IMG/VR virus record: IMGVR_UViG_2609459800_000001
Length of the DNA stretch: 64,000 bases
From: a virus
Taxonomy: Duplodnaviria; Heunggongvirae; Uroviricota; Caudoviricetes
Direction: 5' to 3' (one strand)
The number at the start of each line of letters is the position of its first letter. The stretch's first letter is position 1. Positions 12,722 to 48,086 of this stretch are shown in pieces. The position numbers and the translations under genes were made by a program. The notes beneath the pieces were generated by a model that was not told the origin of the DNA, did no database searches, and saw only the letters and a list, made by a program, of their open reading frames with translations.

Positions 12722-13237
12722 ATGGCGTTAACACACCGCGAACTCTGTCAGATTGCGTACAAGTTCCTTAAGCGCAACGGGTTCAAGGTTTGTTTTCATG
12801 ACCGCTTTATAGCTGTAACCAGTACCGGAGAACAGCCAGATGCTATGGGATTCAGAAATTCAGCATCATGCCTGATAGAGGCGAAGTGTTCTCGTGCTGA
12901 CTTGTTAGCAGATAGAAAAAAGCGTTTCCGTAAAAATCCGTCTCTTGGAATGGGCGACTGGCGATTCTTTATTAGTGAGCCGGGAATTATTTCAATTGAG
13001 GATTTACCACCTGGCTGGGGATTACTTCACGTTGTTAACGGAAGAGTACGGAAAGTACATGGATGGCCCAAGGGGAATTGCTGTTGGGGTAACCCTGAAG
13101 ATAAACCTTTTATTGGGAATAAGCAGGTTGAATGCGATTACATGTTATCTGCATTAAGGCGCATGGAGTTGAGAGGGCACCTTAATGAAATATATGACGG
13201 TGTAATTGTTAATAAGAAAGAAGGAAACGCGGCATGA
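12722..13237 (+). CDS. hypothetical protein, possible PD-(D/E)xK nuclease fold
   Basis: ATG overlapping upstream stop; D...EAK-like motif (DAMGF...IEAKCSRAD). Confidence 0.45.
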   Translation: MALTHRELCQIAYKFLKRNGFKVCFHDRFIAVTSTGEQPDAMGFRNSASCLIEAKCSRADLLADRKKRFRKNPSLGMGDWRFFISEPGIISIEDLPPGWGLLHVVNGRVRKVHGWPKGNCCWGNPEDKPFIGNKQVECDYMLSALRRMELRGHLNEIYDGVIVNKKEGNAA

Positions 13238-31800: not shown

Positions 31801-31997
31801 TGAGCCGTGGCGTTAGTCAACTACGAAGACGTGGCCATTACCTACTTAACCAGTTCCGCCAGGGCAGCAGAGTAGGTTTCATCTCGGATGTACCATGCCT
31901 GCATGTTTTCCAGAGAAGCCCGCGAGGTTCCCGGACAGGACTCTGCCATTGCGATAGATTAAATGCAATAACCTAAAAGCGATAACGTGGTGGAAAA

Positions 31998-32635
31998 ATG
32001 TTCATCAGAGCTTATTTAAGGGCATCAACGGAAGATCAGTTTGCCGATCGGGCAAAAGAGATGCTGGGGCAGTTTGTTCAGGAGCGGGGACATAAAATAG
32101 CCAGTTACTACCGGGAGAACATAAGCGGTACAAAACTCGACCGCCCGGAACTGGGACGCTTACTGATGGACAGCCACCGCAATGATATTTTACTGGTCGA
32201 GCAAATTGACCGCCTGACCCGTCTGAGTAACAGTGACTGGATTACGCTGAAAAAGCAGATAGAACAACACGAACTGCGGATTGTCGCCTGGATGTATCCA
32301 CCTCATGGCAGGCGCTGTCAGATAAAGACCCTTCGCAGGCTGACCCAATCACCCGCGCCGTGATAACCGCCATCAATAACATGCTTATCGACCTGATGGC
32401 CGCGATGTCGCATAAGGACTGGCTGAGCCGTCGCCAACGGCAACAACAGGGAATTGAACGGGCTCATACGCTGGGTAAATACCGGGGATAACAGGCCGAT
32501 CAGGAACGGCATCAGAAAGTCCTGTACTACCGGCAGGTCAAGAAACTAAGTATCCATGAAACGGTAGATGCGACAGGGTACAGTCCTTCACAGATATGCC
32601 GCATTCAAGAGAGCCTGAATCGGAATAAAAAGTAG
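31998..32635 (+). pseudogene. serine recombinase (resolvase/invertase family) pseudogene with two frameshifts
   Basis: Catalytic N-terminus, middle and HTH C-terminus lie in three different frames. Confidence 0.7.
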
Positions 32636-32734
32636 CCCTGGCGTTAATGGATTACCTTTCCAGGCTAAGCTCATTGCTCCTGTCAGATACGCAGCCCTGC
32701 CTGTAATAATACAGACTGGGCAATGTGTTGCCAC

Positions 32735-33136
32735 TCAGGCTGACAACTGTCGGAGGATATCCGCTGTATTATAATGAGCCCGTTTTTCTATATATTTCCC
32801 GTCCTTCAGAGTGATCATAAATATCAGAGAAAAGCGCACTTTCCTGCCGCTGGCAGGATGCCCAAGGAATTCACGGGTCTGCACGCCTTCAAAGATAAGA
32901 TAGCAGGCGACTTTATCGTCTCTGGCAAAGATTTCGTGGATACGCATTGTAAATCCCGGAAAAGCATCCATATGGCCTTTTTCCTGTACGATAAACTGCT
33001 CACTGTTCAGCGGTGTATCCACCTGAGAATAGAATTTAAAATCCGGATGGCAGAGGTTTTTCACCTCATCATATTTATTTTCTTCAATCAGACGATAAAA
33101 CTTTTTAACCGTTTTGATATTTTCTTCAACAGACAT
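32735..33136 (-). CDS. NTF2-like / SnoaL-type ester-cyclase-like protein
   Basis: 133-aa ORF; pattern resembles SnoaL-like polyketide cyclase family. Confidence 0.55.
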   Translation of the reverse strand: MSVEENIKTVKKFYRLIEENKYDEVKNLCHPDFKFYSQVDTPLNSEQFIVQEKGHMDAFPGFTMRIHEIFARDDKVACYLIFEGVQTREFLGHPASGRKVRFSLIFMITLKDGKYIEKRAHYNTADILRQLSA

Positions 33137-33144
33137 ATTGCACC

Positions 33145-34134
33145 TCATTTTTCAGTTTCTTTACCTGCCGGAATATTGCCTGCCGGCGTTCCGTTAAATG
33201 TTTTTCGCCATTCACTGGGACTGACTCCCATCCGCTGCCGGAATATCTGCCGGAAAGTAATGGTGGACTGAAAGCCTGCCAGTTCGGCAACCCGCTCCAC
33301 TGCAATATCTGTACTTTCCAGCAGTTCCTGACTCCGCCGGAGACGCTCTGTGGTGATCCACTCCCAGACCGTCATTCCTGTGGCCGAATGAAAATGGCGT
33401 GTAAGCGTTCTTCGGCTCATGGAGGCTAAATGGGCCAGAGTGTCAATATCATGTGGTAATCCCAGATTTGCGGACAGGTATTCCAGCAGCTGGTTTATGC
33501 GGTTATCGGACGTACTTTTGGGAATAAGCAGTTGCCGGTACTGTGCCTGTCCGCCTTCCCGGTAAGGAGGAGCAACCATCCGGCGGGCTATTTGATTAGC
33601 CGTATATCTGCCCAGGCGTTGCCGGATCACATGGAGACAACAGTCCAGTGCTGCGGCTGTACCGGCTGAGGTGATAATCCGCTCGTCCTCAACATAAAGC
33701 ACGTTCACGTCCAGATGAACCGCCGGGAAAAGCATCTGGAAATCCCGTTCAGCCTCCCAGTGCGTGGCCGCCCGTTTACCATCCAGCAGACCGGTGTAAG
33801 CCAGAACAAAACTCCCCAGGCACAGGCCCACCACCTGAGCTCCATTTTTCCAGGCTGCAACCAGGGCACTGAGCAGAGTTTCAGAAGGCCTTTCATGGAT
33901 GTGTTTCCAGAAAGGAATAATAACGATATCGGCCTCTGCCAGTGCATCAAGCCCGTATTCTGCCCTCATCGCCGTACCTTCAGCAGACCAGATAAGCCCG
34001 GGCTCTTCCGCACATACCCGGCGGCTGAAGAGAGCCTTCCCTTCCAGTATCTCCCCGAACAGGATTAGTGGAACGGAGACATGAAATGTACTGAACCCTT
34101 CGGTGATCACTATAGCGACAGTGATGGTGGACAT
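33145..34134 (-). CDS. GlxA-family transcriptional regulator (DJ-1/PfpI domain + AraC-type HTH)
   Basis: N-terminal DJ-1-like domain with Cys nucleophile motif (VVGLCLGSF); C-terminal AraC HTH. Confidence 0.8.
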   Translation of the reverse strand: MSTITVAIVITEGFSTFHVSVPLILFGEILEGKALFSRRVCAEEPGLIWSAEGTAMRAEYGLDALAEADIVIIPFWKHIHERPSETLLSALVAAWKNGAQVVGLCLGSFVLAYTGLLDGKRAATHWEAERDFQMLFPAVHLDVNVLYVEDERIITSAGTAAALDCCLHVIRQRLGRYTANQIARRMVAPPYREGGQAQYRQLLIPKSTSDNRINQLLEYLSANLGLPHDIDTLAHLASMSRRTLTRHFHSATGMTVWEWITTERLRRSQELLESTDIAVERVAELAGFQSTITFRQIFRQRMGVSPSEWRKTFNGTPAGNIPAGKETEK

Positions 34135-34149
34135 GCCATGGCCTCCGGG

Positions 34150-34926
34150 TTAAATCGTAACTGATTCACCATCAGCAGGAACGGCAACTGACGCCTGGAT
34201 CTGGTTATCGCGGGCATATTCCAGCAGTTCCTGACGGGTCAGCAGACAGTGGTTTACGGCCTCCATGTGCGTTGCCACAATCAGTGCCTCTGGTACGATA
34301 CGATGGGCTTTCAGGACATCTTCCCTGCCGAAAATAATGGGGCCGAATCCGAGAACATGCGCCCAGCCCGTATTCATAATAACGACGCCAGGATTGAACC
34401 GACGTAAATTATCCTCTACAGCCTTGATCCAGATGGTATCCCCGACCAGATAGAGCGTTTTTTCGGACGGATGCTGGAAGACCACCCCACAGGCATCCCC
34501 AAGGATTGCTGCGAGTTGCGGGTTAGCATAGGCTTCGTCCGAACCATGCTGACAAACGGTTTTAATAAGTGAAATTTCGCCAAATGTGCTTTTGTCAGAC
34601 AGAATAACAAGGTTGCTGAAGCCCTGGGAACGCAGGATCTTTTCATCATGTTCATTCTGAACATAAATCAGTTTATCTTTCGGGATGTGCGCAACAGCCG
34701 CTTCATCCCAGTGGTCAGGGTGTGTGTGGGTGACAATAATGGCATCCACATCCAGCAGTACATCAAGGTCAAAAGGCAGCTCAGTCATCGGGATGCGGAT
34801 ATCTGACCGGGCCGTTCCTTCGAATCCCGGATAGGCTTCTTTTTTCGCAAGCATCGGATCGACAAGAAATTTTTTACCAGCGTAAGAAATGAGTTGTGTG
34901 GCGTTACGTACCTGGATGATCTTCAT
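34150..34926 (-). CDS. MBL-fold metallo-hydrolase
   Basis: THTHPDHW metal-binding motif (HxHxDH). Confidence 0.8.
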   Translation of the reverse strand: MKIIQVRNATQLISYAGKKFLVDPMLAKKEAYPGFEGTARSDIRIPMTELPFDLDVLLDVDAIIVTHTHPDHWDEAAVAHIPKDKLIYVQNEHDEKILRSQGFSNLVILSDKSTFGEISLIKTVCQHGSDEAYANPQLAAILGDACGVVFQHPSEKTLYLVGDTIWIKAVEDNLRRFNPGVVIMNTGWAHVLGFGPIIFGREDVLKAHRIVPEALIVATHMEAVNHCLLTRQELLEYARDNQIQASVAVPADGESVTI

Positions 34927-35144
34927 TTTAGCAAGTCCTGTATTGGTTAATAACCATCAGAGCCATATCATGATGGCCTAATGTGATAATTATGATTAAA
35001 TCAGGCCTGCCTGCCACTGAAATAATGCCATATTTGGATGATATCAGGCCATTCTTCTGGCTCTCAGGTTTCAGGAATATGTCTGCTGAAAGCGGGTACA
35101 GATCTGACGCATTGAAGGGAAGTATCGTCCTTTAAGGCTTATTG

Positions 35145-35531
35145 ATGTCAGCCAGTACAAAAAATCATCTTAACGTACAATATCTTCCGTTTCCCAAACG
35201 GAGCCCACCAACGACGGAGGAACGGCGCGTCGCCAATGCTCTTGGCGCTCTCCCCTGCATTGCCTGCTATATGCATGGAGTAATATCTAATGAGGTGTCT
35301 CTGCACCATATCGCCGGTCGTACCGCGCCGGGTTGTCATAAAAAGCAATTGCCACTTTGTAGATGGCACCACCAGCATGCAGCTCCGGCGGAAGTAAGAG
35401 AAAAATACCCATGGCTGGTCCCTGTTCATGCCGATGGTGTGGTTGGAGGCAAGAAAGAATTCACCTTGCTGAACAAGTCAGAGATGGAGTTACTGGCTGA
35501 CGCCTATGAGATGGCAAATATCATGCACTAA
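35145..35531 (+). CDS. HNH endonuclease-like protein at the P1 ref position
   Basis: CIAC...HHI...CRWHHQ HNH/Zn motif; 128 aa from first ATG. Confidence 0.6.
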   Translation: MSASTKNHLNVQYLPFPKRSPPTTEERRVANALGALPCIACYMHGVISNEVSLHHIAGRTAPGCHKKQLPLCRWHHQHAAPAEVREKYPWLVPVHADGVVGGKKEFTLLNKSEMELLADAYEMANIMH

Positions 35532-37250: not shown

Positions 37251-37499
37251 TCAATCAGCATTTAGTAGCAGAGCATTATCTATGATGATCTGCTCCCATT
37301 CTTCGAATGCCCGGTCGCGGACGCCCTGGGGAACGCTGTTTGTTTTGAAATCGACGACCGTCCGCCATTTTCCGTCAGGACGGTACATGCGCAGAGCTTT
37401 ACTTCCCCCTTCCCTGCGCACCTCAACGTTATGCTTGTCAGCAAACTCTTGTAATGCTCGTAGCGTCCCATGCTTTACTGTGTAGTATCGCTTTTTCAA
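37251..37499 (-). CDS. small protein at the P1 lxc (bof) position
   Basis: 82-aa ORF, size and position as recalled for Lxc/Bof. Confidence 0.5.
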   Translation of the reverse strand: MKKRYYTVKHGTLRALQEFADKHNVEVRREGGSKALRMYRPDGKWRTVVDFKTNSVPQGVRDRAFEEWEQIIIDNALLLNAD

Positions 37500-37936
37500 G
37501 TTTTATCTCCAGCCTGTGCTAAGGCTTCAACTTCCAAATCGTAAGACTCAAACTCATAGTCCTGGTCGTCAACTTCTTCAGGCACTGGCAGTAAATGCCA
37601 GGCTGAGTATATCTGACCATTATCAAAACGCTCCTGGCTGTAGAGCGTCGCGGCTATGAGTGTTAGCGCCGGGCGGTCATAACGGTAAATTTTGCGAACG
37701 TCACGGTCAACGAGACGACCGAAATTACCATAACCGCGCTCCAGTAATAATTTTTTAATTTCCGGCCAGTATGGACCATAGCTGCGGTACAGGCGGGGAT
37801 TTTTCAGTAATCGCCCGCGTAGCCCTGACAGGAAGAAATCAACGTATTCGTCTTCTGTTTTTCCTAACAACGCTGTACGGAGTACCGCCTCAAGATATGT
37901 TTTATTCGGTTTTATTGTATCAGATAGTGTGACCAT
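37496..37936 (-). CDS. hypothetical protein at the P1 ulx position
   Basis: 146-aa ORF overlapping downstream start. Confidence 0.5.
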   Translation of the reverse strand: MVTLSDTIKPNKTYLEAVLRTALLGKTEDEYVDFFLSGLRGRLLKNPRLYRSYGPYWPEIKKLLLERGYGNFGRLVDRDVRKIYRYDRPALTLIAATLYSQERFDNGQIYSAWHLLPVPEEVDDQDYEFESYDLEVEALAQAGDKT

Positions 37937-37969
37937 ATTATGCGACGCCCGGCGAACCGGGCGCTCCTG

Positions 37970-39337
37970 TTATGCGTATTGTTGGATGACGGCCAGAACG
38001 TCCGACACGTTGTGTTTTGTCTCGATAATCCACCAGTTGCCCGGGAAATCGCTGTTCTTCGCCTTCGCTGGCACCCAGCGAGCGCCGAATTTTTCCTTGA
38101 TTGCGTCTTTAGCACGGAAAAGAACGCCTTTCATGCCGGACGCCTCCTGAAGCCCAAATACCTCGCCAGCGGCGAATTTTGGTGCGTACATCATCTTCAG
38201 GTCGGCGGTGGATACGCGATAATTCAGACCAAGAGACTGAGCTATGCTGGTGGCATCACCCTGTATTGATGATAACTCTTCTTGTTTCTCGTTTCTGGCG
38301 GCAATTTCTTCCTCCGTGATGTTGCCAAGGGCCAGGTTTATCCGATCAGCGTCGGCCTGTTTCTCTTCATCGGTGCGCCCGGCAAGAACCGTGTTAATTC
38401 TCTGCAATATCTCCACATGATTCTTGCGCATGCTGAGCAATTCCGGCGTAACATCGTTAAGATCCACCAGCCCAAGGATGGCAAGGTCGGAAAACATTGA
38501 TACCAGGTTGTAGGTCATGCGATAGCTGAGTTGGCTATAGGCTGATGGCAACTGCACCGCATCCATTTGATAGGCATCCATAAATTTAGAGCCGTCGTTT
38601 ACGACATCCGCAATTGCCGGTGTGATTTTCCCTGTGGTGGCGGCCTCCCTGATTGCTGTTACCCACGATTGAGTCAGCGCGGCGACTGCATGATTCAGAT
38701 TGGCTTTCCGTTCTGCTGCAATGCGCGCGCTTGCTGCGTCCATTGCCTGCTTGATCTCGTCTTTATTGCTGTAAATGCCAATGGGACCAAACTGTGTTGT
38801 GGTGATCTCATAATCTGACGCCCGGAACTCATTGGTACCGAAAATGGCATTGGTGACCTCAAGTTCAGAATCCCCGTTACGAGTAGCCCCCTGACTTGTT
38901 TTCTCCGGCATTTTTGCGATCGCATCCGCTATTTTCTCCTGAATTGCTTCAGGGGATAGCGTATCTCCGTATGACGCGATTACATCGCTATAATTGGATC
39001 CAAACAGTTCAGTCAGGAATACTTCTGCCAAACGGACCTGGCGGTTATTCCCTTCCGACATCATACCAAGCACCCATTTAGCAATTGACGACTTCAGCGC
39101 GCCGTCACGGCGATCCGGGTAAACCGCATGCTTCAGTGGGTCCGTATAGGTACCAACAAAATCAATGCTATAGCCTGACTCTGTAGTCTGAACGCCGTAT
39201 GAGTCAGTGATTTTGATCATGCCGCGCTGCTGGAAACGGTAGAAATCGTCACAGGAAATGATGTCGTTAATCCCGGCGATGGAGACGCCACCACTGATTT
39301 TCTGCATAACAGCATCTTCATCGGGAGTTACATCCAC
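37970..39337 (-). CDS. hypothetical protein (455 aa); possible C-terminal remnant of a darB-like gene
   Basis: GTG start; lies where P1 darB 3-prime end is expected. Confidence 0.4.
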   Translation of the reverse strand: MDVTPDEDAVMQKISGGVSIAGINDIISCDDFYRFQQRGMIKITDSYGVQTTESGYSIDFVGTYTDPLKHAVYPDRRDGALKSSIAKWVLGMMSEGNNRQVRLAEVFLTELFGSNYSDVIASYGDTLSPEAIQEKIADAIAKMPEKTSQGATRNGDSELEVTNAIFGTNEFRASDYEITTTQFGPIGIYSNKDEIKQAMDAASARIAAERKANLNHAVAALTQSWVTAIREAATTGKITPAIADVVNDGSKFMDAYQMDAVQLPSAYSQLSYRMTYNLVSMFSDLAILGLVDLNDVTPELLSMRKNHVEILQRINTVLAGRTDEEKQADADRINLALGNITEEEIAARNEKQEELSSIQGDATSIAQSLGLNYRVSTADLKMMYAPKFAAGEVFGLQEASGMKGVLFRAKDAIKEKFGARWVPAKAKNSDFPGNWWIIETKHNVSDVLAVIQQYA

Positions 39338-40119
39338 CTGTTATCCAGCGTCTTCACATCCCAGTTACCCGATTTGGTGCCTTTGAAGGTAAAGATGATC
39401 TCCACGTCTGCGCGCTGGCTGTCGAAGTCCAGCGACTTAATGCGAACGATATCACCGGCACAATCGTAGTATTGGCCTACACGCCATGAGCGATCGCCGA
39501 TAACAAGGAACTCACTCGCATGGTTAACCAGGTCAGGATCAACATCCAGAATGCCTTTATTTATTGCATCCTCCACCAGTGGGCGCAGGCGTTTGATATC
39601 CGTCGCGGCCTTCTGAGTACGGTTCAATAATTTCTCATAGCGGGAGATGGCTTGAGAGATATTAGCCTTGCGCTGAATGGCGCTTTTCAACGACGCGCGA
39701 TACTGTGCTAACAACATACGGTCTGTGTGATGGACACTCCCCCAGCGGGCCTTCCAGTCTGCGTTATCAGCTGCTTTGGCCATTACCGCCTGTTTGAATT
39801 TAGCTACCTCGGCGGTGGTCTTTTCAAATTCCGCTTTGCTTCGCTCTAATTCAGCGGTAAGTACCTCCACATCCTCACCAGCTGCGTGCTGCGCCTTGAT
39901 GTAGTTCTGAAGGTCGATAGTAGCCTGTTCTTTCTGGCGAGCGCGTTGCGCGGCTTTCGCCTTATCCATTTGAACCTGCATCATTGCCAGACGTTCACCG
40001 TCATCCTTCGCGGTATACATCTGCATTTCGATCATATCATTGGCGTCGGCGTTCTCCATTTCTGACTTATCTGAACGGAGGATATCGGAGATCCTGGGCT
40101 TCGTTTGGGAAACGTACAA
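39328..40119 (-). CDS. coiled-coil protein (263 aa) whose 5-prime end abuts inverted repeat L
   Basis: TTG start inside the repeat; first ATG gives ~243 aa. Confidence 0.4.
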   Translation of the reverse strand: MYVSQTKPRISDILRSDKSEMENADANDMIEMQMYTAKDDGERLAMMQVQMDKAKAAQRARQKEQATIDLQNYIKAQHAAGEDVEVLTAELERSKAEFEKTTAEVAKFKQAVMAKAADNADWKARWGSVHHTDRMLLAQYRASLKSAIQRKANISQAISRYEKLLNRTQKAATDIKRLRPLVEDAINKGILDVDPDLVNHASEFLVIGDRSWRVGQYYDCAGDIVRIKSLDFDSQRADVEIIFTFKGTKSGNWDVKTLDNRWM

Positions 40120-40331
40120 TATTGTACGGTTGCGCTATTGCGGTAGGGTGTACTCCAACGCTATACGGTCTTTGGCAGACCTTTAGGGAAATGAGATAAG
40201 CTAAATGCGATAAGAGAAAAGCAATAACTTAAAGGCAATAGCTGATTACGATAAATCAATCAGTTACTTATCAGTATCGATTAAAAAATGCTCCTAACGT
40301 ACAATAATTTCCGTTTCCCAAACCGACCCCT
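40093..40331. repeat. 239-bp inverted repeat, left copy (MITE-like)
   Basis: Near-identical inverted copy at 43748-43986; contains palindrome CGTACAATATTGTACG (40113-40128); own ends form ~26-bp imperfect TIR. Confidence 0.85.
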
Positions 40332-40341
40332 AATAGCCGGA

Positions 40342-40539
40342 CTACGGACGCGCAATAATTCGCCCCTGACTTTCCAGCAGTTGGTAAGCATGTCCGACGG
40401 TCATGAAGCTCATGCCGCTGCTGGCGACCTGTTCGCGCAGTGACGGCAGACGATCGCCGGGTCGCCAGACGCCAGAGGCGATCTGTTCGCAAAGTTGTTC
40501 AGCCAGACGCTGGTATTTTTTATTCTGGTTTCTCGTCGG
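40342..40539 (-). pseudogene. GntR-family regulator fragment (HTH domain only)
   Basis: KKYQRLAEQL...GDRLPSLREQ...MTVGHAYQLL HTH; no start codon; ends 11 bp from repeat. Confidence 0.55.
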
Positions 40540-40691
40540 TCAATGCAGGTGAGCCTCGCAGTGTATAACAGTGAATAAAATTCACAACGATTTGCAAACT
40601 GTTATGGTTAAATATGTCTGTTCTGTTTCTGCCCCTCATTGCCTCACACGCTTAGAATTGCGCTGAATCAATTTTTAATGCGGAGTCAGGC

Positions 40692-42092
40692 ATGTTTGGT
40701 CTTGATGCGTATCACCTGGCAAGGATCCAGTTCGCCTTTACAGTTTCATTTCACATTATCTTTCCGGCGATCACCATTGGGCTTGCCAGTTATCTGGCGG
40801 TGCTGGAAGGCCTTTGGCTAAAAAGCAAAAATCCGGTCTGGCGCTCGTTGTACCACTTCTGGTCAAAAATATTCGCCGTAAATTTCGGCATGGGCGTGGT
40901 TTCCGGTCTGGTGATGGCCTATCAGTTCGGCACCAACTGGAGCGGTTTTTCGGAATTCGCAGGCAGTATTACCGGGCCGTTGCTTACCTATGAGGTGCTG
41001 ACCGCTTTCTTCCTTGAAGCCGGATTCCTCGGGGTGATGCTGTTTGGCTGGAATAAAGTCGGTCCGGGTTTGCATTTCTTCTCAACCTGCATGGTGGCGC
41101 TTGGCACCCTCATTTCCACCTTCTGGATCCTGGCGTCTAACAGTTGGATGCAAACGCCGCAGGGGTTTGAGATCGTCAACGGCCAGGTTGTGCCCGTGGA
41201 CTGGTTCGCCGTTATCTTCAATCCTTCGTTCCCTTATCGGCTGCTGCATATGTCCGTCGCCGCATTTCTCAGTAGCGCGCTGTTTGTCGGCGCTTCGGCA
41301 GCCTGGCATCTGCTGCGCGGCAACGCAACGCCAGCCATTCGCACGATGTTTTCCATGGCGTTGTGGATGACGCTTATTGTCGCGCCGGTGCAGGCGTTAA
41401 TCGGCGATATGCATGGGCTGAACACCCTGAAACATCAGCCAGCCAAAATCGCCGCGATTGAAGGTCACTGGGAAAACCCGCCGGGTGAGCCCACGCCGCT
41501 GCTGCTGTTTGGCTGGCCGGATATGGAACAGGAACGCACCCGCTATGGACTGGCGATCCCGGCGCTGGGAAGCCTGATCCTGACGCACAGTCTGGATAAA
41601 CAGGTTCCGGCGCTAAAAGAATTCGCCAAAGAGGATCGCCCTCACTCGACGATCGTGTTCTGGTCGTTTCGCATCATGGCCGGCCTGGGCATGTTAATGA
41701 TCCTGCTAGGGCTCTGTGCGCTCTGGCTGCGCTACAGGCAGCGCCTCTACACCTCGCGCCCGTTCCTGCGCTTTGCGCTATGGATGGGACCCTCGGGGCT
41801 CATCGCCATTCTCGCGGGCTGGGTGACCACTGAGGTCGGACGCCAGCCGTGGGTGGTGTACGGTTTACAGCGTACTGCCGACGCGGTGTCGGCCCACGGC
41901 GATTTACATATGAGCATTTCGTTGCTCGCTTTCTTTGTTGTCTACAGCTCAGTCTTTGGCGTCGGCTACAGCTATATGATTCGCCTGATCCGCAAAGGCC
42001 CGCTGGAAGATGATTCCGCGCCGCCGCCGGGCACACCCGCCAGGCCGCTTTCCGCCGCCGTCCTCGATTCTCAACATAAGGCACATCGCTAA
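40692..42092 (+). CDS. cytochrome bd-type quinol oxidase subunit I (CydA/AppC/CioA family, short Q-loop)
   Basis: 466 aa; alignable with E. coli CydA N-terminal region and GRQPW motif. Confidence 0.9.
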   Translation: MFGLDAYHLARIQFAFTVSFHIIFPAITIGLASYLAVLEGLWLKSKNPVWRSLYHFWSKIFAVNFGMGVVSGLVMAYQFGTNWSGFSEFAGSITGPLLTYEVLTAFFLEAGFLGVMLFGWNKVGPGLHFFSTCMVALGTLISTFWILASNSWMQTPQGFEIVNGQVVPVDWFAVIFNPSFPYRLLHMSVAAFLSSALFVGASAAWHLLRGNATPAIRTMFSMALWMTLIVAPVQALIGDMHGLNTLKHQPAKIAAIEGHWENPPGEPTPLLLFGWPDMEQERTRYGLAIPALGSLILTHSLDKQVPALKEFAKEDRPHSTIVFWSFRIMAGLGMLMILLGLCALWLRYRQRLYTSRPFLRFALWMGPSGLIAILAGWVTTEVGRQPWVVYGLQRTADAVSAHGDLHMSISLLAFFVVYSSVFGVGYSYMIRLIRKGPLEDDSAPPPGTPARPLSAAVLDSQHKAHR

Positions 42093-43102
42093 TGGGTATT
42101 GATTTATCGGTTATCTGGTTTGTGATCATCGTTTTCGCCACGCTAATGTATATCGTGATGGATGGATTCGATTTGGGTATTGGCATTCTGTTTCCTGTCA
42201 CACGAAACGCAGAGGATCGTGATGTGATGGTCAATAGCGTCGCGCCGGTGTGGGACGGTAATGAAACCTGGCTGGTGCTGGGCGGCGCGGGGCTGTTTGG
42301 GGCTTTCCCGATGGCCTATGCGGTTATTATCGATGCGCTGACCATTCCGTTGACGCTGATGCTGATCGGACTGATTTTTCGCGGCGTGGCCTTCGAGTTT
42401 CGCTTCAAGGCCACGCCAGCCCACCGCCCATTTTGGGACCATGCTTTTCTCGGCGGGTCGATTCTGGCTACCTTCGCCCAAGGGATCGTGGTTGGCGCAG
42501 TGATCAACGGTTTCCCGGTGACCGGTCGCAGCTACAGCGGCGGGCCGTTCGACTGGTTAACCCCCTTCACTCTGTTCTGTGGCGTCGGACTGGTCGTTGC
42601 CTATGCGCTCTTAGGCGCAACCTGGCTGGTGATGAAAAGCGAAAATCCGCTTCAGGATAAAATGCGCAGCGTCGCGAAAAAACTGCTGCTGGCCCTGCTG
42701 TTGTCAATTGCGATAATCAGCCTCTGGACACCGTTAGCGCATCCGGCGATCGCCGACCGTTGGTTTACGCTTCCCAACCTGGGCTATCTGCTGCCGGTTC
42801 CGGTGCTGGTGATCGCGTTCAGCGTCTGGTTATGGCGCACACTGGGTCGTCCGGAAAACCACACGTTTCCGTTTGTGCTGACGCTCGGGCTAATCTTCCT
42901 TGGTTTCAGCGGCCTGGGCATCAGTATCTGGCCGCACATTATTCCGCCTTCGGTTACCCTCTGGCAGGCAGCCGCCCCCGCCCAGAGTCAGGGGTTTATG
43001 CTGGTCGGTGCGCTGCTCATCATTCCGGTGATTTTGGTGTACACCTTCTGGAGTTACTATGTGTTTCGCGGCAAAGTGCAACATGGCGAGGGGTATCACT
43101 GA
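42092..43102 (+). CDS. cytochrome bd-type quinol oxidase subunit II
   Basis: 336-aa polytopic protein, start overlaps subunit I stop. Confidence 0.9.
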   Translation: MGIDLSVIWFVIIVFATLMYIVMDGFDLGIGILFPVTRNAEDRDVMVNSVAPVWDGNETWLVLGGAGLFGAFPMAYAVIIDALTIPLTLMLIGLIFRGVAFEFRFKATPAHRPFWDHAFLGGSILATFAQGIVVGAVINGFPVTGRSYSGGPFDWLTPFTLFCGVGLVVAYALLGATWLVMKSENPLQDKMRSVAKKLLLALLLSIAIISLWTPLAHPAIADRWFTLPNLGYLLPVPVLVIAFSVWLWRTLGRPENHTFPFVLTLGLIFLGFSGLGISIWPHIIPPSVTLWQAAAPAQSQGFMLVGALLIIPVILVYTFWSYYVFRGKVQHGEGYH

Positions 43103-43230
43103 TGCAACATTCTCTCTGGAAACGCCTGATGTGGCTGGTCATCCTTTGGGGCGGCAGCGTGTTGGCGCTGGCGGCGGTGGGCATGTTTTTTCGCCTGCTC
43201 ATGACTGCGGCGGGGTTTAAAGCGCATTAA
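43102..43230 (+). CDS. small membrane protein (42 aa), CydX-like position
   Basis: ATGA overlap with subunit II stop; single TM helix. Confidence 0.45.
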   Translation: MQHSLWKRLMWLVILWGGSVLALAAVGMFFRLLMTAAGFKAH

Positions 43231-43334
43231 GCGGACACCTCGCCGGATGTCGGCTTTGGGCCAGGCGTTAACCGGCGGAAATAAATACCAACACAAAGGC
43301 CCGGTAAACGCCACCGGGCTGATGTCGCAAAGGA

Positions 43335-43745
43335 TTAAGGTTTACGCTTCGGCAGCGTTTTCATCAGATCTTCCGGACTGACGGAACCCACCACGCTGCC
43401 CGGCAGCGGCATTTTAAGAATGTGATCTTCAATCTTGCCGATAACGTGCATTTCACACGGGCGACAGCCAAATTTCAGCGTCAGCACCTCATCACCGTTG
43501 ACCAGTTGCATTGGCGTCGCTTTCCAGCTTTTGATGTTACCTTTCGCCTGTTTCGGGCAAAGATTAAAGGCAAAACGCAGGCAATGCTTGGTGATCATCA
43601 CAGGCACATCGCCCTTTTCTTGATGCGCTTCATACGCCGCGTCGATCAACTGTACGCCATAACAATGGTAGAACTCACGCGCCTTCTGGTTATAGACGTT
43701 TGCCAGAAAACTCAGATGCGTCTGCGGGTAGACCGGCGCGGGATC
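43335..43745 (-). pseudogene. C-terminal fragment of an unidentified host-type gene (5-prime end replaced by repeat)
   Basis: Frame stays open upstream into inverted repeat R with no start codon. Confidence 0.4.
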
Positions 43746-43747
43746 GG

Positions 43748-43986
43748 AGGGGTCGGTTTGGGAAACGGAAATTATTGTACGTTAGGAGCATTTTTTAATC
43801 GATACTGATAAGTAACTGATTGATTTATCGTAATCAGCTATTGCCTTTAAGTTATTGCTTTTCTCTTATCGCATTTAGCTTATCTCATTTCCCTAAAGGT
43901 CTGCCAAAGACCGTATAGCGTTGGAGTACACCCTACCGCAATAGCGCAACCGTACAATATTGTACGTTTCCCAAACGCAGCCCAGG
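43748..43986. repeat. 239-bp inverted repeat, right copy
   Basis: Reverse complement of 40093-40331 with one visible mismatch. Confidence 0.85.
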
Positions 43987-44615
43987 TACGCGTTTTTAAT
44001 TGCCATATCCCGCGCCGATTGCGCCACCGCGCTGGTGGGCAGATAGGCCAGTTGTGACGCTTCGCGACCATTTTTATAGCTATTGCGGTAGTTGTGACCT
44101 TCGTCGGCGATCACACTATCGAAGCCCATATCCTCAAAGTACGGATACTTCTCTGCTTTTTCGGTGCCGGTATCTGAATACTCCGACAATACCCGGCGAC
44201 GCGCGGCCTCTTTGCGGTGGGAGTCGGAGTCCATTGCGCTGGCTACGCGCCCGGCAGCAACGAAGTCATAAAGCATATCCTGTGCATGCTCATCTACGGT
44301 GTCATCACGTAGCGGAATGCGGGCGTATTGTTCTTTGGTAAACACGACTGCACGGTAATTTGAGTGCGGGATTGCATTCATACGTGCCGTGATAGTGGCT
44401 TCATCTGCCAGTTTAAGGGCATCGCGCATAACTGGAGTGCCATCAGTACCAAGAACAGGTTTACCGTTCTCATCGAGCACCGGCACCTGGCGAATCTGAT
44501 CGCCATCCATCAGCACATCAAGACCGACAAACAGGTAGTTACTGAATGCCTCTTCACTCAGGAACTCTTTTGCTTCGTAATACCAGTTTTCCAGCACTGA
44601 TTTATATTGTCTCAT
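43893..44615 (-). pseudogene. darB-like N-terminal fragment 2; last ~30 codons read into inverted repeat R
   Basis: ORF diverges into repeat at 43986; contains DEGH motif. Confidence 0.35.
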
Positions 44616-44991
44616 TAAAAACGCCGGTGCCCGCCGATGGTTCCAGAGTGTTACCTACGTCCGCGCCATAGAGGTTCATGATCTCCCAGACGCCTTCAGC
44701 GATAGGCTTTGGTGTGTAATATTCGGAGACGGACCCGCCAATGCCGCCTTCGCCGGTGTACCCAGCCAGGATCTGGCGCTGTTCATCTGTCAGTGTCGCG
44801 CCATCCACCAGCGAATTAAGCAAATCTATCGCCTTCTGATTCGCCTCCCGGCGCAGCCGGTCATAGCTTTTGCCTTCCACCTTTTCCACGCCGTATCTAA
44901 TCGGCGCTCGATGAGATGTTATTGCCCTAATGTATTTCAATATTTCGCTGACACTTGAACAGCGAAACACCCCCATAGATAGCTTGTTCAT
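44602..44991 (-). CDS. darB-like N-terminal fragment 1 (methyltransferase motif I-like)
   Basis: LEPSAGTGVF resembles SAM-binding motif I; overlaps next ORF by 14 nt in another frame. Confidence 0.35.
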   Translation of the reverse strand: MNKLSMGVFRCSSVSEILKYIRAITSHRAPIRYGVEKVEGKSYDRLRREANQKAIDLLNSLVDGATLTDEQRQILAGYTGEGGIGGSVSEYYTPKPIAEGVWEIMNLYGADVGNTLEPSAGTGVFNETI

Positions 44992-45053
44992 TGGTAATCC
45001 TTAACAAGTGATTAGTGTTAAATTCCGTTCAAACACGATGCGAATTATTCTAA

Positions 45054-47787
<2,734 letters not shown>

Positions 47788-47798
47788 CCACGAAAAAT

Positions 47799-47819
47799 AA
47801 CCCCGGCGGATGCCGGGGT
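47799..47819 (+). terminator. intrinsic terminator hairpin after pro
   Basis: AACCCCGGC-ggat-GCCGGGGTT. Confidence 0.5.
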
Positions 47820-47831
47820 TCTCGTTAACTA

Positions 47832-48086
47832 TTATCGCCTTCGCCTGCGTGCCATATATTTGCGCACCGCGCGGCGTGGACAATCTGAAGCGGTTTCTTT
47901 CTGCTGCATCAATCTTGCAGCCATGCTCAAAAATGTCAGGCACAGCCGAAGCCCGGCATACAATAGCGGTTCCAGTGGCCACGTCTCATTGAGCACATAT
48001 ACCGCCATGAAAATCGAGTCGAAAACTATCGCCGCCAGCGATAACTTCATTGTCGAAAGTCGGCGGAGCTGCCGGAGTTTATTCAT
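47832..48086 (-). CDS. possible small membrane protein (84 aa)
   Basis: Two hydrophobic stretches; overlaps lyz 3-prime end by 8 nt. Confidence 0.3.
   Translation of the reverse strand: MNKLRQLRRLSTMKLSLAAIVFDSIFMAVYVLNETWPLEPLLYAGLRLCLTFLSMAARLMQQKETASDCPRRAVRKYMARRRRR

Follow-up and report, generated by a model that had tools for sequence, protein, structure and literature searches.

A Citrobacter-type cytochrome bd operon between inverted Tn3-derived miniature elements in darB of a P1-like phage-plasmid

How does an operon for a respiratory oxidase come to stand in the darB gene of a P1-like phage-plasmid? The question is raised by a 64,000-nucleotide stretch of DNA (IMG/VR record IMGVR_UViG_2609459800_000001; this whole stretch is called the window below), in which a 3.9-kb segment with cytochrome bd genes lies between inverted repeats. 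A preliminary description, made from the letters of the window alone, had taken the repeats for two elements of the MITE kind (MITE, miniature inverted-repeat transposable element), which would have mobilised host DNA as a composite unit and disrupted darB. After comparison with plasmids, genomes and published mobile elements, we consider it probable that the segment is a composite like those named TIME-COMPs, made of two inverted copies of a 235-bp Tn3-derived miniature element (TIME), with a history that would lead from a Citrobacter sedlakii-type chromosome through IncFII plasmids into the phage-plasmid.

A repeat search of the window returned two inverted arms of 239 nucleotides (nt) each, at 40093-40331 and 43748-43986. 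Base-by-base comparison gave 238/239 identical positions, the sole mismatch (T vs. G) being at 40101, so that the arms are inverted and bracketing as described, yet one base short of the perfect identity claimed for them. At this length and 99.6% identity, a chance origin is impossible. Identity ends sharply on either side; 3 nt on the outside (CCT/AGG) and 1 nt on the inside (T/A) count as flank. The element proper is 235 bp long, a length set by other members of its family, which start at the position of 40096 and stop at that of 40330; its two copies agree at 234 of 235 positions and lie 3,418 bp apart in opposite orientations. Both copies have an imperfect terminal inverted repeat (IR) of their own, which extends over 38 bp instead of the ~26 bp first given, with 29/38 matches between the L end, GGGCT[T/G]CGTTTGGGAAACGTACAATATTGTACGGTTGC, and the R end, GGGGTCGGTTTGGGAAACGGAAATTATTGTACGTTAGG. 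The two R ends (GGGG) point towards the cargo and the two L ends (GGGC) outward. No open reading frame (ORF) of at least 40 amino acids (aa) lies wholly inside the element, and neither the ORF list nor a domain search gave a transposase domain in the region. The elements are thus MITE-like in the sense intended, transposase-less with terminal inverted repeats of their own, and the interval between them is free of transposase genes.

To place the element, we compared it with the four enterobacterial TIMEs known, whose sequences are listed in Table S2 of PMC13367494. One of these, MITESen1, a 256-bp TIME listed in ISfinder and discovered on a Salmonella IncX1 plasmid, aligns collinearly with the element at 75% identity (176/235 positions). 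That value is too low for the same element, and IS101, IMU and TIME244 have no meaningful similarity to it, which rules out all four named TIMEs. On these alignments we classify the element, whose 235 bp lie within the size range of TIMEs (about 50-500 bp), as a TIME and as a diverged, previously unnamed relative of MITESen1, not an isoform of it. The perfect 16-bp palindrome CGTACAATATTGTACG reported in the repeats is indeed there (40113-40128 and 43951-43966); it lies inside the L-end IR only and occurs neither in the R end nor in MITESen1 or the parental IRs.

The IRs also point to a parental lineage. A common Tn3-family transposon (995-aa TnpA, WP_000124023.1, NF033527; matched on 3,786 plasmids) has IRs that read GGGGTCAGTTTGGATATCGAAAATTATTGTACGTTAAG, near those of MITESen1. 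A TnpA 77% identical to this protein is encoded by two plasmids, paPb2 of Arsenophonus (L023) and one from Leclercia (L024), in a transposon whose tnpA-proximal IR, GGGCTCCGTTTGGGAAACGGAAAATATTGTACGTTAAG, shares the unusual GGGC terminus with the L end of the element. This paPb2-type IR, which stands next to a full-length tnpA, matches the R end at 34/38 and the L end at 31/38 positions; the figures for the IRs of Tn3 and Tn21 are 15-18/38 and 20-25/38. Within the window itself, a decayed transposon of this IR lineage is inserted in ref, a P1 gene (Table 1). Of its tnpA two fragments remain, its tnpR (31998-32623) is frameshifted, a res-like region lies at ~31930-31997, and its passenger genes are for a SnoaL-like cyclase, an AraC/DJ-1 regulator and an MBL-fold hydrolase. 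Its terminal IR at 35169-35206 likewise starts GGGC: GGGCTCCGTTTGGGAAACGGAAGATATTGTACGTTAAG (GGGCTCCGTTTGGGAAACGG...TAAG). The WP_000124023.1-type transposon was rejected as the cognate parent, its IRs fitting MITESen1 better and those of the paPb2/window-remnant type fitting the element better. The transposons of paPb2, the Leclercia plasmid and locus L010 are candidate transposase partners.

Three observations on these transposons may be added. The block inserted in ref recurs on about 60 plasmids. On paPb2 the transposon (L023 2233-6094) is apparently complete at 3.9 kb, and its IRs are of two types (GGGGTCAG...GGATATCG at one end, GGGCTCCG...GGGAAACGG at the other), with no target duplication seen; this hints that two IR sublineages may work with one transposase. 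IRs of this lineage are interrupted by IS110-family elements on the IncFII plasmid p6409 (L007) and on the Leclercia plasmid, where the element is annotated as IS4321-family. IS4321 and IS5075 target the 38-bp IRs of Tn21-type transposons, and the interrupted IRs fit this habit.

What lies between the two IRs of the element is equally informative. In a multiple alignment the whole tnpA-tnpR intergenic region, in the autonomous transposons as in the window remnant, proves collinear with the interior of the element, and the interiors of MITESen1 and other family members behave alike. Collinearity reaches as far as the start of tnpR (AAAAAATG), and the R-end IR follows immediately. Against three parental intergenic regions the interior is ~75% identical over ~115 nt, with local alignment scores of 33-37 compared to a shuffle mean of 17-20 (sd ~2.4; z about 7). 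Judged by these alignments, the interior is a res-like remnant of the parental res region, giving the architecture IR, res-like, IR. The interior of MITESen1 is reported to be unlike any well-characterised res site, and the comparison with its own parental lineage was not made in that work (PMC13367494). From our alignment, the MITESen1 lineage appears to have kept part of its parent's res site; this would account for the position of its copies at breakpoints of inversion and recombination. Hints of recombination at the site by a cognate resolvase are indirect and limited to plasmids with the cargo in either orientation and to solo copies at recombination breakpoints (see below).

Each R end also contains a promoter-like site (TTAAAA, 16-nt spacer, AATAAT), at 40281-40308 on the plus strand and 43798-43771 on the minus strand. 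It is a consensus match only, occupies the former position of the parental tnpR promoter and reads outward into the cargo, in copy 1 towards cydA. The idea of a flip-dependent expression switch was dropped, as both copies present the same outward site to the cargo and inversion leaves this arrangement as it is.

The cargo itself has a GC content of 0.53-0.60 vs. 0.48 for the window, and its genes largely agree with the preliminary description: a GC-rich segment with a GntR-type helix-turn-helix fragment, here assigned to the N terminus of a MocR-family regulator, an intact cydA/cydB pair with a 42-aa small subunit, and a 3' gene fragment running into the repeat, which proves to be the C-terminal part of a U32-family peptidase (counterparts in related records are annotated collagenase-like protease, U32 or DUF3656). 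The oxidase is not of the ordinary cydAB/cydX type. CydA covers PF01654 completely (positions 1-418 of 418). It matches E. coli bd-II and bd-I in two stretches only (PDB, NCBIfam), is 466 aa long vs. 514-522 aa, and scores far under the bd-I/bd-II equivalog cut-offs (291 vs. 1025); this two-stretch match and low score identify it as the short-Q-loop type. The small protein is DUF2474, or CydZ, which belongs to short-Q-loop operons, many of them of the cyanide-insensitive type (PMC4325964). By domain content, we therefore assign the oxidase to the cyanide-insensitive-type cytochromes bd (short-Q-loop cydABZ).

Where did this operon come from? Searches of E. coli genomes placed the cargo on plasmids in 27/27 matching records and in no chromosome. 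When CydA was compared with species-representative genomes, Citrobacter sedlakii came first (98% aa identity), ahead of other Citrobacter species (94-95%). At the nucleotide level, the 3,414-bp cargo is 98.6% identical to the C. sedlakii chromosome and collinear with it (mocR, cydA, cydB, cydZ and the U32 gene in the same order), vs. about 81% for other Citrobacter species. Judged by this match, the donor is a C. sedlakii-type chromosome. The proposal of captured chromosomal DNA bracketed as a composite unit is upheld for foreign DNA and not for DNA of the E. coli host. An element-free 6.1-kb version, with the full mocR and a longer U32 fragment, adjoins repA on IncFII plasmids and is 98.2% identical to C. 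sedlakii. The full-length mocR product in both is 469 aa (PF00392 and PF00155), and the full U32 ORF in C. sedlakii is 662 aa. The cargo stops exactly at both R ends, within two genes that are uninterrupted in the IncFII plasmids and in C. sedlakii; the IncFII version thus supplies uninterrupted sites for both element insertions, and the cargo probably arrived via such a plasmid. One assembly (L016, GCA_013359025.1) has a 466-kb contig in which repA and the IncFII-type mocR-cydABZ block are neighbours of the cobalamin genes cobT/cobS/cobU, perhaps through integration of a plasmid or because the whole is a hybrid replicon of very large size.

The recipient was examined in the same way. The window is a P1-like phage-plasmid, and the flanks of the segment, which the preliminary description proposed to compare with DarB, are 97-98% identical to P1 darB and syntenic between ulx and prt. 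The P1 reference (NC_005856, locus L001) has darB at 3071-9838 on the minus strand, with an intact frame of 2,255 codons. Three alignment blocks connect the two (window 37253-40094 with L001 2354-5196, 43983-44604 with 6563-7184, and 44607-48000 with 9454-12848). The 3.9-kb unit stands in place of 1,366 bp of darB (L001 5197-6562), and a second, independent deletion of 2,269 bp (L001 7185-9453) is found at window 44604/44607, where 2 nt (TA) fill the joint. Among backbones that keep darB intact, the closest (L113) agrees with P1 at both junctions. A simple insertion into darB was rejected on these two comparisons, which reveal replacement of the 1,366 bp in addition to the 2,269-bp deletion. 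The remains of DarB (codons 1-129, 885-1092 and 1548-2256) are in three pieces in separate frames, so the gene cannot encode DarB. It is, as proposed, destroyed, by a more complex route than interruption. Coordinates of all features are collected in Table 1.

Table 1. Features of the composite segment, its darB flanks and the related transposon remnant, by position in the window; L001 is the P1 reference (NC_005856).
Feature	Position	Strand	Evidence and remarks
Decayed Tn3-family transposon of the same IR lineage, inserted in P1 ref gene	31842..35206		Domain and IR comparison
darB 3' remnant, codons about 1548-2256	37970..40094	-	97.7% nt identity to P1 L001 2354-5196
Single T at darB/element junction	40095		Absent from P1 and closest intact-darB backbone (L113), both of which read GATCC/AGCC
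TIME copy 1, L to R end	40096..40330	+	IR-L 40096-40133, res-like interior, IR-R 40293-40330; 75% identity to MITESen1
mocR', N-terminal GntR-type helix-turn-helix fragment of MocR-family regulator	40332..40527	-	Translation; ~60 N-terminal codons kept, cut by R end
Native mocR-cydA intergenic region	40528..40691	+	Collinear with C. sedlakii; promoter-like site at 40581-40608 (by consensus match only)
cydA, short-Q-loop cytochrome bd subunit I, 466 aa	40692..42092	+	PF01654 at 2.9e-169
cydB, subunit II, 336 aa	42092..43102	+	PF02322 at 1.5e-101; TIGR00203
cydZ, DUF2474 small subunit, 42 aa	43102..43230	+	PF10617 at 3.3e-15
U32-family peptidase C-terminal fragment, 137 aa and stop	43335..43748	-	Translation; cut by R end of copy 2
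TIME copy 2, inverted	43749..43983	-	R end at 43749, L end at 43983; repeat comparison
darB middle fragment, codons about 885-1092	43984..44604	-	97.1% identity to L001 6563-7184
TA filler at second darB deletion joint	44605..44606		Junction comparison
darB 5' fragment, codons 1-129, then darB/prt promoter region	44607..44991	-	98.5% identity to L001 9454 onward

The whole structure has relatives of three kinds. The first is the long, element-free version on IncFII plasmids (2-3 in PLSDB). The second, P1-like with two inverted copies, comprises the window, the complete circular plasmid pEcoUTI1e and L021 (one in PLSDB), together with NZ_JBRNIL010000002.1, which is placed here from its full-length cargo match alone. 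The third and most frequent is also P1-like but has only one copy, and its cargo points the other way; it was found in 28 PLSDB plasmids of E. coli, Shigella and Salmonella and in 3 IMG/VR contigs. Single-copy plasmids share the darB-3'/L-end and R-end/U32' junctions with the two-copy form and have one novel joint, which brings mocR' (window 40454) and darB (window 44191) together over a 9-bp overlap, ACCCGGCGA. Missing from them, but kept in the two-copy form, are one element, 122 bp of mocR' and 207 bp of darB. Because sequence kept in the two-copy form is missing and the joint is one of 9-bp microhomology, derivation runs from two copies to one; the junctions identify the single-copy plasmids as descendants of an ancestor like the two-copy form, by inversion between the copies and then a 565-bp deletion. 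The oxidase had been called an unusual moron. As respiratory cargo it is unusual, but it is no one-off, the structure or its derivative being carried by 29 PLSDB plasmids and 3 IMG/VR contigs.

In the single-copy relatives darB diverges at a point other than that of the 2,269-bp deletion, after window 44459. Beyond that position three of them (L005, L006 and L012) carry a Phd/RelE toxin-antitoxin pair, an alkaline-phosphatase fragment and an autotransporter of ~1,170 aa. From this layout, darB looks like a cargo-accretion site.

Is there evidence that the element family moves? Members were found in 359 of 5,426 complete E. coli genomes (about 6.6%), with 671/676 places on plasmids, and no inspected record annotates the copies. 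Of the 19 E. coli records that match the element at 99% or more, those inspected have the cyd genes with either two copies or one. A variant ~88.7% identical to the element is present twice in about 300 E. coli records, and the one examined, p6409 (NZ_CP010372.1; 9001-11420), has two inverted family elements, L ends out, bracketing ~590 bp. Its composite adjoins the IncFII copB/repA region and is flanked by TTTAA on both sides. We read this clean 5-bp duplication as the footprint of transposition using two L-type ends, which argues that the ends of this family can transpose. The p6409 unit has a gene for a 117-aa hypothetical protein inside, and its IS110-family element lies within one R-end IR. 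Solo copies are informative in another way. On two enterohaemolysin plasmids (L008 9001-9234 and L114 8001-8235) the left flank, a truncated IS66 transposase gene, is common to both and the right flanks differ, which suggests that solo family copies act as recombination breakpoints.

Assembled into a history, the composite reading would run as follows. About 6 kb of C. sedlakii-type chromosome (mocR-cydABZ-U32 peptidase) would have reached IncFII plasmids, where two copies of the element would have inserted in mocR and in the U32 gene and so delimited a cargo of 3.4 kb. Next, through a Tn3-family transposase provided in trans and working on the two outward-facing L ends, the unit would have passed to a P1-like phage-plasmid and landed in its darB. 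Loss of the target duplication and of 1,366 bp of neighbouring darB sequence would have come with the insertion or after it. Intramolecular events of Tn3-family elements are known to delete adjacent DNA, and a loss of this kind may apply to darB. In a descendant lineage the cargo could flip between the inverted copies by homologous or resolvase-mediated recombination, until the 565-bp deletion at the 9-bp microhomology removed one copy and froze the cargo; the frozen form is the commoner one. Our comparisons show the anatomy, the family relationships, the donor, the occurrence in several independent assemblies and the direction of derivation, whereas the transposition event, the order of these steps and expression of the oxidase are our inference.

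Several observations weigh against this history. No 5-bp direct repeat surrounds the unit (ATCCT on the left vs. AGGTA on the right) and 1,366 bp of darB are gone between, so arrival by a single clean transposition is at most putative. The target-site duplications (5 bp, sometimes 6 bp, for TIMEs) that the preliminary description had proposed to look for are absent at either window copy, under a composite or an intramolecular-inversion model and with the ends shifted by 1-3 nt; none was found at the solo copies L003/L106, L008 and L114. The single T at 40095 is not accounted for by P1 or L113. The L end, starting GGGC, differs from the R end at 9/38 positions, and its competence is deduced from one event, the TTTAA-flanked unit. 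An intact Tn3-family transposase or resolvase is not encoded in the window, which has only tnpA fragments and the frameshifted tnpR. Neither PLSDB nor the complete E. coli genomes nor IMG/VR yielded the whole unit outside darB or with intact duplications, and a donor with elements in mocR and the U32 gene, both flanks intact, was not found.

Missing duplications would be expected equally well if the cargo had entered darB by recombination, an account we regard as unlikely but as the most serious competitor. A replicative cointegrate of a donor plasmid with the phage-plasmid could have formed through a single element or end, or copies resident in darB could have recombined with the cyd-flanking copies of the donor, by homology or at the res-like site; resolution at non-equivalent copies would leave the cyd block in place of the 1,366 bp, so that replacement and lack of duplication are explained together. 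The solo copies of L008 and L114, which lie at breakpoints with a shared left flank and no duplications, behave as a portable crossover site would, the interior is res-like, and similar circle or recombination routes have been proposed for MITESen1 structures (PMC13367494). This account takes more steps than insertion with adjacent deletion, and resolvase activity on this site is putative. Among the matches no P1-like plasmid carried a solo element with the rest of darB intact, although the 19 records at 99% or more were not all inspected.

Could the two copies instead have arisen in situ, from a single element beside the cyd block? Tn3-family elements transpose replicatively, and the established intramolecular reaction leaves an inverted segment between exactly two copies, themselves inverted; relatives that have one copy and the cargo turned round do exist. 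The reaction predicts reciprocal flank pairs, in which the sequence 5' of copy 1 equals that 3' of copy 2 and the reverse, but the observed pairs do not match (ATCCT vs. TCCGA, TAATA vs. TACCT). Nor can the single-copy plasmids serve as ancestors: stretches of mocR' (122 bp) and darB (207 bp) still present in the two-copy form are missing from them, and the microhomology joint marks them as deletion descendants. We give this origin very little credence. Still less can be said for an assembly artefact or a chimeric contig, which had been named as a finding that would overturn the description. Inverted repeats of ~240 bp can mislead short-read assemblers, yet the same structure is present in the complete circular pEcoUTI1e and in L021, the full-length cargo is in NZ_JBRNIL010000002.1, and the diagnostic junctions are common to at least 28 derived plasmids and 3 IMG/VR contigs, which leaves that explanation with next to no probability.

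The composite history, if correct, has consequences beyond this locus. Miniature Tn3-derived elements escape standard annotation and have been surveyed systematically for antibiotic-resistance cargo only (PMC13367494). Here the same machinery would have moved a chromosomal respiratory operon from C. sedlakii through IncFII plasmids to a P1-like phage-plasmid and on to E. coli, Shigella and Salmonella, a concrete route for metabolic genes into phage-plasmids. The analysis also shows that in P1-like plasmids now circulating, darB is a landing site that can be dispensed with. A MITESen1 relative without a name is identified in about one of every fifteen complete E. coli genomes. More speculatively, and with considerable doubt on our part, the family may consist of res-bearing portable modules for recombination and transposition that move chromosomal metabolic genes, and not resistance genes alone, onto phage-plasmids, with cydABZ perhaps expressed from its native promoter or from the element's former tnpR promoter. 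Lysogens of E. coli, Shigella and Salmonella would then gain a third terminal oxidase tolerating cyanide, sulfide or nitric oxide, and a P1-like element would bring about lysogenic conversion of respiration; on this reading, the loss of darB suggests a lineage that now spreads mostly as a plasmid.

The structure is of a known kind and introduces no new principle. In the literature searched, coverage of which was incomplete, we found no earlier report of cyd genes or of darB disruption in P1-like phage-plasmids. Within the same limits, the element, its res-like interior, a respiratory cargo without resistance genes, the route from Citrobacter via IncFII to P1-like replicons and the recurrent loss of darB all appear to be unreported.

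The closest parallels are the TIME-COMPs, described as a kind in 2014 (Szuplewska et al., PMC4133298) and surveyed for resistance genes in 2026 (Gomi and Yano, PMC13367494); the latter survey includes inverted examples whose interior can invert, and one of these was on putative phage-plasmids. Like these, e.g., the TIME244-bounded tet(A) unit, the present structure has two inverted miniature Tn3-derived elements around a cargo of a few kb, occurs with its interior in both orientations in different replicons, and resides on plasmids that include putative phage-plasmids. Unlike them, it carries a respiratory oxidase operon and gene fragments in place of an antibiotic-resistance gene, its bounding element is the unnamed MITESen1 relative, and the recipient darB sequence is replaced with no flanking 5-bp duplication; published IMU-bounded units are also without direct repeats.

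The element shares with MITESen1 its orientation, collinearity over the whole length, the IR core GTTTGG...ATTGTACG, the internal blocks TAGGGTGTACTCC..CGCTATACGG, CTAAATGCGATA and AACTTAAA.GC.ATAGC, and an occurrence mostly on plasmids. It differs in being 21 bp shorter, in an L end that starts GGGC, in the 16-bp palindrome, and in IRs nearer to the paPb2-type/window-remnant parent (31-34/38) than to the MITESen1-type parent (25-32/38). IS101 (209 bp), which is mobilised and resolved by gamma-delta/Tn1000, offers the same gene-free plan of two Tn3-family IRs around a parental res remnant; there is no meaningful sequence similarity between the two, and the res of IS101 is experimentally functional (PMC13367494), whereas the interior here is res-like by sequence. 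As for the cargo, the cioAB/cydABZ operons of Pseudomonas, Zymomonas and Klebsiella have the same short-Q-loop CydA, CydB of ~336 aa and downstream DUF2474/CydZ gene. The operon described here, known from its sequence, is set apart from them as a C. sedlakii-type allele that travels on a phage-plasmid beside a truncated MocR-type neighbour.

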